Assembly (NCBI GenBank): GCA_021200555.1
Contig: JAJQGK010000122.1
Coordinates: 9,915-73,914, forward strand
DNA length: 64,000 nucleotides
From: Clostridiales bacterium
GTDB taxonomy: Bacteria; Bacillota; Clostridia; Oscillospirales; Acutalibacteraceae
Reading direction: 5' to 3'
Below are positions 27,021-36,140 of this stretch, one piece after another (position 1 is the stretch's first letter; every line of letters starts with the position of its first letter). The position numbers and the translations under genes were made by a program. The notes under the pieces are model-generated. The model did not search any database and had not been told where the DNA came from. It worked only from the letters and a program-made list of their open reading frames with translations.

Positions 27021-27057
27021 TTTACATTTCAAAAAGATTTTGTTAAAATATTAACAA
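27021..27057 (+). promoter_or_regulatory. rex promoter with embedded perfect Rex operator (autoregulation)
   Basis: TTTACA (27021-27026), 17 nt, TAAAAT (27044-27049). The operator TTGTTAAAATATTAACAA at 27040-27057 fits the Clostridial Rex consensus TTGTTAAnnnnTTAACAA at all 14 positions. Confidence 0.75.
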
Positions 27058-27078
27058 GAAGAGGAAAGGGGAGTCAAA

Positions 27079-27687
27079 ATGGGCATTTCACAGACTGTCA
27101 TCAGAAGATTGCCGTCATATTTGCATTATTTAAGGCAGCTTCCGGATGAGACGGTAAATGTATCTGCCACTGCCATTGCGGGAGCATTGGGTTTGGGCGA
27201 TGTTCAGGTCAGGAAAGATCTTGCGCTTATATGCGGCGGCGGCAAGCCGAAAATCGGATATGACAGGCTTTCTCTCATAAACTCTCTTGAAACAAGGCTG
27301 GGATACAAAGACAAAAAGCTTGCGGTTATTGCAGGCGCAGGCAAGCTCGGTTCCGCTTTTCTTGAATTTAAAGGCTTTGAGGAAAACGGTCTCAATATTG
27401 TAGCGGCTTTTGATAACGATATCTCCAAAGTCGGATATTCCGATTCGGGAAAGTACATATATCCCATGAGTGATTTCTGCGATTTCTGCAAAACGGAACA
27501 TGTGCTTATCGGAGTGATAACCGTTCCGTGGCAGGCGGCTCAATCGGTGTGTGATATGATGTCCCGGTCTGGAATAAAGGCAATTTGGAATTTTGCTCCG
27601 GTAAAACTCGAAGCCCCCGACGATATTCTTATACAAAATGAAAATCTTGCGTCATCTTTGGCTTTATTGTCAAGCCATTTAACTTAA
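27079..27687 (+). CDS. rex: Redox-sensing transcriptional repressor Rex
   Basis: ISQTVIRRLPSYLHYL wHTH start and Rossmann segment AVIAGAGKLGSAF. Confidence 0.95.
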   Translation: MGISQTVIRRLPSYLHYLRQLPDETVNVSATAIAGALGLGDVQVRKDLALICGGGKPKIGYDRLSLINSLETRLGYKDKKLAVIAGAGKLGSAFLEFKGFEENGLNIVAAFDNDISKVGYSDSGKYIYPMSDFCDFCKTEHVLIGVITVPWQAAQSVCDMMSRSGIKAIWNFAPVKLEAPDDILIQNENLASSLALLSSHLT

Positions 27688-27749
27688 GTAATTAAATTTC
27701 TATATCAACATTGTTTAATAATACTTTTTTCATAAAGGAGAAATGTGAA

Positions 27750-34613: not shown

Positions 34614-34662
34614 TTTTATTCTTTGTATATATGTTTGTTCATGAAAGGAATTGCATAAAAAG

Positions 34663-36087
34663 ATGAGAAAGTTTGATACTAAGGTACAATATCTTAAATA
34701 TAAGGTGCTTCGAGAGGTTGCAAGACAGGCGTGGAACGACACCTTGCTTGAAAATCTTCTTGAAATACCAAAGATTATCGTACCCGGCAACGAGCCTACT
34801 ATGCGCTGCTGCGTATATAAGGAGAGAGCAATTCTTTCCGAAAGGGTTAAGCTCGCTATGGGAGGCGATCCGAACAACCACAATTGTATAGAGGTTATCG
34901 ATATAGCCTGCGATGAATGCCCAATAGGCGGTTATGAGGTTACAAATGCATGCAGAGGCTGTCTTGCCCACAGATGCGAGGATGTGTGCAAAAGGGGAGC
35001 TATTTCTTTTGATCATCAGCAGAAGGCTCATATTGACAAGTCTAAATGTGTTGAATGCGGTCAATGTGCAAAGGTTTGTCCCTACGGTGCAATTACGGAC
35101 AATGTAAGACCGTGTGTGCGTTCATGCAAGGTTAAAGCGATTACCATGGATGAACAAAGAACTGCGGTTGTGAATAATGATAAGTGCATTTCCTGCGGTG
35201 CCTGTGTTTATCAATGCCCATTCGGCGCAATTATGGATAAATCATATATTTTAAATGTAATAGACATGATTAAGAAGTCTGAAAACAATACGAGATATAA
35301 AGTTTACGCTGTTGTCGCTCCGTCAATTGCCAGTCAGTTTACTTATGCCAAGTTGGGACAGGTTATTTCAGGGATAAAGGCTCTTGGATTTTTTACCGTG
35401 GTTGAAGCCGCTTTGGGCGCCGATATGGTTGCGTATGCGGAAGCAAAAGAGCTTGCGGAAAAAGGGTTCCTCACAAGCTCCTGCTGCCCGGCATTTGTTG
35501 ATTATGTCAAAAAACAGTTTCCGGATCTTGCCGAGCATATCTCTCATAATCTTTCTCCTATGGCAACGATTGCTAAATTTATGAAGGAGCGGGAGCCTGA
35601 CTGCAAAATTGTATTTATAGGTCCGTGCACCGCAAAAAAAATGGAATTTAAAAAGGAAGAGGTCAGACCGTATATTGACAGTGTTATGACCTTTGAAGAA
35701 CTCCAGGCGCTGTTTGACAGTAAGGATTTGGACATTACGCTGATGAACGAGGATGTTCTTGACAACGCTTCGTATTACGGCAGGATTTTCGCCAGAAGCG
35801 GCGGTCTTTCCGATGCAGTTAAACAAGCGCTTTCCGAGCATGGAATTGAAAACTTTGATTTAAAGGCTGTTCCATGCGACGGAATAGAAGCCTGCAAAAT
35901 CGCATTGCTTAAAGCCTCAAAGCGTGTCCTTGACGGCAACTTTATTGAGGGAATGGCTTGCGGCGGAGGCTGTATCGGCGGCGCAGGATGCTTGACTCAC
36001 GGTGAAAAGAATAAGTCTGAGGTTGATAAGTACGGCAGAGAAGCATACGAAAAAACAATATCGGATGCAATAAGCATTTTGAAGTAA
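34663..36087 (+). CDS. hydA: Monomeric [FeFe]-hydrogenase (ferredoxin-dependent HydA2-like)
   Basis: Several [4Fe-4S] motifs (CVECGQCAKVCP, CISCGACVYQCP). Canonical H-cluster motifs TSSCCPAF, GPCTAKKMEF, EGMACGGGCIGGAG. Confidence 0.9.
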   Translation: MRKFDTKVQYLKYKVLREVARQAWNDTLLENLLEIPKIIVPGNEPTMRCCVYKERAILSERVKLAMGGDPNNHNCIEVIDIACDECPIGGYEVTNACRGCLAHRCEDVCKRGAISFDHQQKAHIDKSKCVECGQCAKVCPYGAITDNVRPCVRSCKVKAITMDEQRTAVVNNDKCISCGACVYQCPFGAIMDKSYILNVIDMIKKSENNTRYKVYAVVAPSIASQFTYAKLGQVISGIKALGFFTVVEAALGADMVAYAEAKELAEKGFLTSSCCPAFVDYVKKQFPDLAEHISHNLSPMATIAKFMKEREPDCKIVFIGPCTAKKMEFKKEEVRPYIDSVMTFEELQALFDSKDLDITLMNEDVLDNASYYGRIFARSGGLSDAVKQALSEHGIENFDLKAVPCDGIEACKIALLKASKRVLDGNFIEGMACGGGCIGGAGCLTHGEKNKSEVDKYGREAYEKTISDAISILK

Positions 36088-36110
36088 CAAGTAAAAAGTG
36101 TTTGAAACAT

Positions 36111-36140
36111 ACAGCGGCGGCTCAGGCTTCCGCTGTTTTT
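36111..36140 (+). terminator. Intrinsic terminator ending the hydrogenase cluster
   Basis: ACAGCGG / CCGCTGT stem, 12-nt loop, TTTTT. Confidence 0.75.

Follow-up and report, generated by a model that had tools for sequence, protein, structure and literature searches.

A putative hydrogen-sensing HydS-PP2C locus in an Acutalibacteraceae genome is orthologous to the high-H2 operon of Ruminococcus albus 7

How might an H2 signal be converted into an output where a presumed sensor hydrogenase is encoded side by side with a phosphatase, a kinase, the regulator Rex, an alcohol dehydrogenase, and a catalytic hydrogenase? This question is raised by a block of genes in a 64,000-nucleotide (nt) stretch of contig JAJQGK010000122.1 from an uncultured Clostridiales gut bacterium (hereafter the window), whose closest named relatives are Candidatus Fimenecus and Acutalibacteraceae. 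Group C hydrogenases are presumed H2 sensors, a role proposed twelve years ago, and papers from 2026 still describe the interaction partners and mechanism of these sensors as awaiting identification. Mapping of open reading frames (ORFs) with Pfam and NCBIfam annotation revealed eight tightly spaced plus-strand genes at 27079-36087, where the initial annotation of the DNA had counted nine: rex, adhE, a phosphotransferase gene (below, the kinase), two ferredoxin genes, hydS, a PP2C phosphatase gene, and hydA. That annotation had called the route from H2 signal to output undescribed and the block the best candidate in the window for an unresolved system. The block is a gene-for-gene orthologue of Rumal_3400-3407 of Ruminococcus albus 7, an operon published in 2014 (Zheng et al.) and 2019 (Greening et al.), and is a new member of a known system. 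We give a probability of about 0.72 to the reading that the block is an orthologue of this "high-H2" operon and operates through the Rex and HydS-PP2C mechanism proposed below.

The match to Ruminococcus albus 7

Searching a plasmid collection with tblastn identified plasmid pRUMAL01 of R. albus 7, which encodes a PP2C protein with 75% identity to that of the window. The annotated gene order on pRUMAL01 is LysR regulator, Rex, AdhE, phosphotransferase, two (2Fe-2S) ferredoxins, HydS, SpoIIE-family phosphatase, and the 478-aa HydA2. The R. albus neighbourhood cited in the initial annotation as very similar is in fact an exact match, with the pRUMAL01 genes in identical order and orientation. 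The other proteins have identities of 77% (AdhE), 71% (kinase), 78% and 59% (ferredoxins), 67% (HydS), and 74% (HydA), each by tblastn over at least 60% of the protein, and Rex is the most divergent (48%). Common to both loci are the eight genes, their order and strand, the 8-nt overlap of hydS with the PP2C gene, the 478-aa HydA, an ATCGAT repeat array upstream of rex, and a LysR-type regulator. This arrangement is not a chance juxtaposition, since R. albus and dozens of species-level genomes have their genes in the identical order.

The two loci also differ. A perfect Rex operator overlaps the -10 element in the window, whereas R. albus has none within two mismatches. The LysR-type gene is separated from rex by two minus-strand genes in the window (gap, encoding glyceraldehyde-3-phosphate dehydrogenase (GAPDH), and a 2-hydroxyacid dehydrogenase gene) but is directly adjacent to rex in R. 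albus. The gap between the kinase and ferredoxin genes is 109 nt with a hairpin in the window and 18 nt in R. albus. Finally, the window comes from the metagenome-assembled genome of an uncultured host, in which the locus may be chromosomal or plasmid-borne.

Transcription of the R. albus genes responds strongly to a partner organism. RNA sequencing in the supplement of Greening et al. 2019 reports Rumal_3400-3407 as down 90-130-fold in co-culture with an H2 consumer, while a second, chromosomal and constitutively expressed Rex (Rumal_1252) is unchanged. The same supplement gives the HydDB labels FeFe Group C3 for Rumal_3405 and FeFe Group B for Rumal_3407. Rumal_3400-3407 make up the operon of Zheng et al. 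2014, and a full-text literature search with the Rumal locus tags returned no paper.

Within the window, the adhE start codon (27750) follows rex by 62 nt and the kinase start codon (30381) follows adhE by 18 nt, both as first annotated. HydA has an alternative ATG start at 34663.

The conserved core and its proteins

Homologue searches, including one with a profile built from 73 diverse PP2C representatives, returned only an abundant clade at 77-100% identity; diversity was drawn from a 50%-identity cluster library, the plasmid collection, and a metagenome scan seeded with a distant representative. We compared a close set of 80 species-level genome loci found with the profile (PP2C 74-82% identical) with a distant set of 68 metagenome loci (PP2C less than 55% identical to that of the window). 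Gene presence was counted for 62 loci that extend far enough upstream; the window and two of the three loci from the plasmid collection are among them.

The order ferredoxin-ferredoxin-hydS-PP2C-hydA is almost invariant in the close loci; of the 71 that could be assessed, 65 carry a group B hydA on the downstream side. The genes further upstream are less constant: the kinase gene is present in 45 of the 62 loci and missing from 17, adhE is found in 30 and rex in 21, and only 17 have the full rex-adhE-kinase set. Among distant loci with enough sequence upstream of the PP2C gene, all but one have hydS adjoining it, usually with one ferredoxin gene before, so that ferredoxin genes upstream of hydS are a feature of both sets. 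In about half of the distant loci a group B hydA follows, and in some a bifurcating HydABC set is encoded upstream. Clustering all neighbouring ORFs of the 68 distant loci yielded no recurring kinase, STAS protein, response regulator, or transcription factor.

The universal unit thus comprises a ferredoxin, HydS, and a PP2C protein with its C-terminal domain, usually accompanied by a catalytic hydrogenase. The kinase, adhE, rex, and the LysR-type regulator are later additions confined to Oscillospirales. Conservation of the neighbourhood, proposed earlier as a check, holds for the core in the 80 close and 68 distant loci and only within Oscillospirales for the kinase, adhE, and rex. The kinase is absent from all 68 distant loci and so does not accompany group C3 sensors in general. 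Three metagenome loci (L101, L130, and L155; PP2C 39-68% identical) carry an adhE-like gene (47-49%) directly upstream of the ferredoxin-hydS-PP2C-hydA core and have no kinase gene, which indicates that the linkage to adhE recurs independently of the kinase. Four contigs with an Oscillospirales-type cluster are filed under Methanocorpusculum sp. (L062), Acidiphilium sp. (L025), Anaeroplasmataceae (L032), and Faecalibacterium prausnitzii (L070), and are probably mis-binned or mislabelled.

HydS consists of two [4Fe-4S] clusters, the H-domain (PF02906, 161 bits), a C-terminal four-Cys cluster (PF04060, 41 bits), a PAS domain (residues 401-499, 27 bits), and a helical tail. Pfam thereby bears out both the Cx2Cx4Cx16C motif first noticed in the protein, which is the PF04060 motif CGSCGYNTC-x16-C, and its PAS domain. 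Alignment to solved HydA1, with the roles of residues near the H-cluster read from PMC10055695, places Gly (FIGPC) at the equivalent of CpI M353 and Ser (EMSSC) at that of M497; the Cys equivalent to CpI C299 is kept (SSCCH). HydDB defines group C3 as phosphatase-linked, with an adjacent Ser/Thr (PP2C) phosphatase gene. HydS has the H-domain, four-Cys cluster, PAS domain, adjacent PP2C gene, and sensory-type residues of this group, and these traits, together with the HydDB label of the 67%-identical R. albus orthologue, are the basis on which we class it as a putative group C3 sensory-type hydrogenase. The biochemically characterised HydS of Thermotoga maritima (TmHydS) has the same domain order (N-terminal [4Fe-4S] clusters, H-domain, four-Cys cluster, and PAS) and the same M353-to-Gly and M497-to-Ser changes, but has Ala131 where the window protein has Cys.

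The two small proteins encoded before HydS are, as annotated, thioredoxin-like ferredoxins of 79 and 86 aa, but their motif is of the NuoE/HydC type, Cx4C...Cx3C (CIGSSC/CMGKC), and not Cx3C...Cx3C. The hydrogenase encoded last was described as canonical and monomeric. It is monomeric, yet its 149 bits with the group A model TIGR02512 are below the cut-off of 406, and it passes the model for FeFe_hydrog_B1 (TIGR04105, 570 bits against a cut-off of 450), which places it in group B by profile score. R. albus HydA2, of equal length, scores 577 bits with TIGR04105. Greening et al. 2019 refer to the ferredoxin-only hydrogenase of the cluster as group A1 in their main text, whereas their own supplementary HydDB alignment lists Rumal_3407 as Group B.

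The PP2C gene overlaps hydS by 8 nt (ATGAATAA), exactly as first read, and the two genes are probably translationally coupled. The junction is overlapping or nearly contiguous in 64 of 80 close and 46 of 55 distant loci. The metal-binding residues D23, D41, D156, and D211/D212 are invariant or nearly so among the 73 diverse representatives, and the phosphatase half of the AlphaFold2 model has Foldseek matches to SpoIIE (5mqh, E = 2.5e-13) and RsbX (3w40, E = 3e-10), as well as to RsbU-type structures. The predicted local distance difference test (pLDDT) score is 80.6 for the whole protein and 87.8 for the C-terminal domain alone. The architecture of a PP2C domain followed by this C-terminal domain (about 390 aa) is found in 511 cluster representatives at E<1e-30, nearly all of them full length, and the C-terminal domain has the conserved motifs GPP, CGGTT, PP, GxDLVTEGxxT, and VGxAxNPAH. 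A Foldseek search of the PDB with the model found no fold match for this domain at E<1e-3. We considered whether it could be a STAS-like built-in substrate and rejected this: nothing in the PDB matched below E = 1e-2, and the only similarities were generic Rossmann-like ones (UbiX and the ACS N-terminal domain). The domain might serve the switch by binding a ligand or a partner.

Acetoanaerobium noterae encodes a homologue of 38% identity that shares this two-domain architecture (L083, 9992-11173) and lies downstream of two CoA-transferase subunit genes; no hydrogenase was found among the ten flanking ORFs annotated there (about 6 kb upstream and 4.5 kb downstream). Because this homologue has no hydrogenase nearby, the PP2C family extends beyond H2 sensing and hydrogenase loci.

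The window phosphatase belongs to the subfamily (PF07228) of the SpoIIE/RsbU/RsbP/RsbX-type PP2C proteins of partner-switching modules. RsbP likewise has a PAS domain ahead of its phosphatase, whereas the PAS domain of the window is on a separate protein that is predicted to be translationally coupled. The block further differs from partner-switching modules in having no STAS substrate and no GHKL anti-sigma kinase, neither of which is a conserved neighbour in the 148 loci; its linked kinase has an APH fold, and the C-terminal domain of its PP2C protein is not STAS-like. The initial annotation had seen no phospho-target in the block, and this stands: there is no STAS protein among the eight genes, and no recurring STAS or response regulator neighbour in the 68 distant loci.

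The kinase passes the thresholds of APH (PF01636, 49 bits) and RIO1 (29 bits) and fails that of Pkinase (PF00069, 19.7 against 31.7 bits). It has weak matches to RIO1, Bud32, and Pkinase, and its best solved relative is choline kinase (E = 2.7e-4). By the Pfam threshold, it is not a Hanks-type protein kinase. Its R. albus orthologue, the 71%-identical Rumal_3402, bears the NCBI name phosphotransferase. The catalytic residues (Lys in IKVF, NEA, HGDxxxxN, and LDW) are conserved in 49 orthologues, and both the phosphatase and the kinase are predicted to be catalytically intact. The two had been described as a kinase/phosphatase pair, which is accurate in that they are encoded together but does not describe group C sensors in general, as the kinase is absent from 68 of 68 distant ferredoxin-HydS-PP2C loci. 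In alignments of the ferredoxins, HydS, PP2C, and HydA, no Ser/Thr column was conserved at 90% or more in kinase-bearing and 40% or less in kinase-less loci, a test of low power, as kinase-less genomes could encode a kinase elsewhere.

The core-only layout of the distant loci resembles hfsABCD of Thermoanaerobacterium saccharolyticum and T. thermosaccharolyticum. Compared by published description, this operon has the core order of the window, namely a small protein, the PAS hydrogenase HfsB, the Ser phosphatase HfsC, and the HydA2-like ferredoxin-linked HfsD. As published, it includes no kinase, rex, or adhE, and adhE and rex are located elsewhere. Loss of hfsB changes adhE expression in Thermoanaerobacterium, and ethanol yield is genetically linked to the operon as well.

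Promoter, Rex, and the LysR-type regulator

Upstream of rex, a promoter scan placed its best-scoring site of the region at the TTTACA-17-TAAAAT element already assigned to this gene, and the perfect Rex operator over its -10 is likewise present (27040-27057, TTGTTAAAATATTAACAA; Table 1). The scan found no promoter-like site on the plus strand in the rex-adhE or kinase-ferredoxin gaps. The window has three Rex boxes with at most two mismatches, against 0.81 expected by chance. Such boxes lie upstream of the first operon gene in 21 of 75 related loci (about 0.6 expected) and in 12 of the 16 related loci where adhE is the first gene. A Rex box with at most two mismatches was not found in the R. 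albus operon promoter, and R. albus appears to have lost it. On pRUMAL01 (3540-3710), the tandem TATCGATA repeats are kept and the Rex box is reduced to its left half-site, plus TATAAT.

Two further Rex boxes occur in the window. One (25724-25741, two mismatches) precedes the minus-strand GAPDH gene (24599-25651) by about 75-90 nt, and this gene may belong to the Rex regulon of the operon. The other, a second perfect box (TTGTTAATATTTTAACAA, 41250-41267), falls within a long intergenic stretch; an operon for a LivJ-type branched-chain amino-acid ATP-binding cassette transporter (binding protein, 41624-42841; permease, 43031-43927) lies 357 nt downstream of it.

In the clostridial Rex regulon, Rex represses adhE via TTGTTAA-N4-TTAACAA, and the promoter serving adhE in the window likewise has a perfect operator over its -10. 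The window differs in that rex is the first gene of the regulated operon, and would therefore be autoregulated, and in the divergent wing of its Rex. This Rex matches solved Rex structures (E = 6e-32) and has the GAGKLG motif; it shares the wing signature GKPKIGY/GKPKxGY with the 23 operon-encoded Rex proteins, whereas solved Rex proteins have GxxGYGY. The operon Rex thus seems to be a divergent paralogue type.

Immediately upstream of the promoter are three palindromes with an ATCGAT core at 14-nt spacing (TTTCGATT, TATCGATA, and TATCGATA, starting at 26971, 26985, and 26999), the last of which ends 14 nt before the -35. The tandem palindrome TATCGATA-N6/7-TATCGATA is common to the R. albus and window promoters. 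In 19 of the 21 loci with rex first, R. albus among them, an ATCGAT array precedes the rex ATG by about 95-135 nt. Degenerate copies precede the operon in loci with adhE first, including those where the LysR-type regulator directly precedes adhE. In the common promoter layout, the repeats come first, followed by a -35 of AATTCCC-like or TTTACA sequence and by a Rex-box-like sequence with the -10 inside it. We regard the array as a candidate operator for an activator or second regulator. We also considered that the array might track adjacency of the LysR-type gene; the strict pattern tracks rex-first loci instead. Since the strict pattern follows rex and degenerate copies precede adhE, the protein that binds the repeats is ambiguous between the LysR-type regulator, the Rex paralogue, and another factor, and the distinctive wing of the operon Rex makes the paralogue an alternative candidate.

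The initial annotation stated that no DNA-binding protein other than Rex is encoded, which is right inside 27021-36140 but leaves out the ATCGAT array and a conserved syntenic LysR-type regulator gene at 23590-24516. Its product is 51% identical to WP_013483405, which is encoded directly upstream of the R. albus operon. Of 45 kinase-bearing loci, 32 have a co-directional orthologue beside the first operon gene, vs 1 of 17 kinase-less ones (Fisher p = 5e-6, with phylogeny not corrected for). The closest curated relatives are the overflow-metabolism regulators CidR (92 bits) and AlsR (77 bits), both far below their cut-offs. The C-terminal half has no PF03466 match at E<1e-3; weak alignments to CidR, AlsR, and CysB (residues 2-199) extend into it. 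Rumal_3399, the R. albus LysR-type gene, is absent from the list of genes changed more than 2-fold in the supplement of Greening et al. 2019, as would be expected if the regulator is made constitutively. The LysR-type regulator and the ATCGAT repeats may represent a further transcriptional input that is not in earlier descriptions of the operon.

A gene encoding Spo0A (receiver domain and Spo0A_C; 22559-23446) lies immediately upstream of the LysR-type gene. The repeats faintly resemble 0A boxes, and we considered Spo0A as a linked regulator, but tblastn of 164 loci found spo0A beside the operon nowhere else, and its adjacency looks coincidental. A few kb upstream of the operon are minus-strand genes for HPr kinase/phosphorylase (19509-20492) and a ROK-family protein (18522-19475), which relate to carbon-catabolite control and not to the operon.

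The GC-rich hairpin noted after the kinase gene is confirmed and is not conserved, the equivalent R. albus gap being 18 nt. The "strong" terminator after hydA is a plausible terminator-like hairpin of moderate stability.

Table 1. Coordinates of the operon, its control elements, and the LysR-type regulator gene in the window.
Feature	Position	Strand	Basis
LysR-type regulator gene	23590-24516	+	PF00126 HTH_1, 66 bits
ATCGAT-core palindromes, three copies	26971-27006	.	14-nt spacing; chance expectation in window 0.00
Sigma-70-type promoter, TTTACA-17-TAAAAT, TG before -10	27021-27049	+	top-scoring, 10/12 positions
Rex operator, perfect, overlaps -10	27040-27057	.	TTGTTAA-N4-TTAACAA
rex	27079-27687	+	NF003994, 239 bits (cut-off 130); PF06971 and PF02629
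adhE, bifunctional acetaldehyde-CoA/alcohol dehydrogenase	27750-30362	+	NF010378, 1385 bits
APH/RIO-like phosphotransferase (kinase)	30381-31139	+	PF01636, 49 bits
GC-rich hairpin in 109-nt kinase-ferredoxin gap	31166-31206	+	-26.5 kcal/mol, z = -2.1; no U-tract
Thioredoxin-like [2Fe-2S] ferredoxin 1, 79 aa	31249-31488	+	PF01257, 32.9 bits
Thioredoxin-like [2Fe-2S] ferredoxin 2, 86 aa	31495-31755	+	PF01257, 35.6 bits
HydS, putative group C3 sensory [FeFe]-hydrogenase	31775-33448	+	Fer4 (two), Fe_hyd_lg_C, PF04060, PAS
PP2C gene	33441-34613	+	PF07228
PP2C (SpoIIE/RsbX-type) phosphatase domain	33441-34112	+	PF07228
PP2C C-terminal alpha/beta domain, ~165 aa	34113-34613	+	family-wide motifs
HydA, predicted monomeric group B [FeFe]-hydrogenase, 478 aa	34651-36087	+	TIGR04105
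Terminator-like hairpin and U-tract	36111-36145	+	hairpin 36111-36136, -18.1 kcal/mol, then UUUUUCGUUU

Proposed mechanism and competing explanations

In the mechanism that we favour, build-up of H2 would prevent reoxidation of NADH via the bifurcating hydrogenase, the NADH/NAD+ ratio would rise, and Rex would leave its operator. The operon would then be transcribed, with AdhE serving as a sink for NADH and HydA as a sink for ferredoxin. HydS would react with H2, probably using the two [2Fe-2S] ferredoxins as redox partners, and would modulate the co-made PP2C protein through its C-terminal cluster, PAS domain, and helical tail. PP2C would in turn oppose a kinase, here probably the APH-fold enzyme, on a phosphoprotein not identifiable in the operon. 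Because only the ferredoxin, HydS, PP2C, and catalytic hydrogenase are kept across distant lineages, the ancestral output most likely lies within this core or is unlinked to it.

Several observations weigh against this scheme. Co-transcription, H2 response, and Rex binding in the window are extrapolated from R. albus and from knowledge of the families. The R. albus operon is regulated about 100-fold from a promoter that has no recognisable Rex box, so that Rex alone cannot explain its regulation. In R. albus the HydS, PP2C, and kinase genes also drop about 100-fold when H2 is low (Greening et al. 2019 supplement), which is awkward for HydS as the primary trigger, and in the group D sensor TamHydS the C-terminal cluster gave no response to H2 (2026 paper). 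The APH-fold enzyme is not demonstrably a protein kinase, it is missing in 17 of 62 close and all distant loci, and no Ser/Thr position of the core proteins tracks with its presence. The statistic for its co-occurrence with the LysR-type gene is not phylogeny-corrected.

A possible though rather unlikely alternative is that transcription is controlled by redox state only, through Rex and perhaps the LysR-type regulator, and that HydS, PP2C, and the kinase tune the catalytic hydrogenase or AdhE post-translationally once the operon has been induced. The perfect operator over the window -10 agrees with this, as do the low-H2 repression of the R. albus sensor genes and the distant loci, which conserve the ferredoxin-HydS-PP2C unit and a catalytic hydrogenase with no transcription factor. 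In T. saccharolyticum, NADH-linked alcohol dehydrogenase activity goes up without a matching change in aldehyde dehydrogenase activity, a pattern interpreted by the authors as post-transcriptional regulation. In Thermoanaerobacterium, hfsD by itself gives the phenotype of the hfsB deletion. Yet deletion of hfsB changes the mRNA levels of adhE, rex, and Tsac_0415, the R. albus operon is regulated 100-fold with no recognisable Rex box, and the core proteins yielded no candidate phospho-site. The genetic data from Thermoanaerobacterium fit transcriptional as well as post-translational action.

The APH-fold enzyme could also be a small-molecule kinase of the choline or aminoglycoside type that has nothing to do with PP2C, in which case it would form with the LysR-type regulator a metabolite-sensing module recruited to the adhE operon, and the kinase of PP2C would be encoded elsewhere. 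We consider this unlikely. The enzyme passed only the APH model and failed the Pkinase threshold, choline kinase is its best solved relative (E = 2.7e-4), its NCBI name is phosphotransferase, and it is absent from all distant HydS-PP2C loci; it also co-occurs with a LysR-type regulator, and regulators of this type are normally ligand-controlled. Set against this are the weak matches to RIO1, Bud32, and Pkinase, and APH-fold protein kinases exist. Moreover, the kinase gene adjoins the ferredoxin-hydS-PP2C core in 16 loci without adhE and is co-regulated with the PP2C gene in R. albus.

It is improbable that the output is itself transcriptional, with the HydS-controlled PP2C and the APH-fold kinase setting the phosphorylation of the LysR-type regulator or the Rex paralogue, which would act at the ATCGAT array. 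If true, this would constitute a Ser/Thr phospho-relay by which an [FeFe] hydrogenase sensor controls a one-component transcription factor.

That HydS is a catalytic or electron-transfer subunit of an Hfs-type hydrogenase made of the ferredoxins, HydS, a PP2C-like scaffold, and HydA, with purely structural PAS and PP2C domains, is very unlikely. In its favour, the four core genes are tightly linked and apparently translationally coupled, the T. saccharolyticum authors suggest that HfsABC might be a functional hydrogenase without HfsD, and the window HydS keeps the C299-equivalent Cys that TmHydS lacks. Against it, the catalytic Asp residues of PP2C are invariant in 73 diverse members, HydS has Gly for M353 and Ser for M497, both changes of the sensory type, HfsD suffices on its own for the T. 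thermosaccharolyticum phenotype, and a homologue with the PP2C-plus-C-terminal-domain architecture exists away from hydrogenases.

The proposed Rex and HydS-PP2C mechanism has a functional parallel in HoxBC-HoxJ-HoxA of Cupriavidus necator, where a low-activity hydrogenase likewise senses H2 and controls hydrogenase gene expression via phosphorylation state. That system relies on unrelated proteins, with a [NiFe] sensor, a histidine kinase, and a response regulator, and its phospho-target HoxA is known and encoded alongside, unlike in the window.

The operon is already known, and its signalling chain is a recognised question. New here, from comparison of the loci, are the delimitation of the core, the lineage specificity of the kinase, and the LysR-type regulator, the ATCGAT array, and the C-terminal domain of PP2C as candidates. 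The operon is testable in the cultivable R. albus 7, over which the window offers no experimental advantage. The LysR-type regulator and the ATCGAT repeat operator provide two concrete candidates for the transcriptional end of the pathway. In gut and rumen fermenters, H2 partial pressure decides between acetate plus H2 and ethanol, a choice that sets the H2 supply to methanogens and is relevant to engineered ethanol producers.

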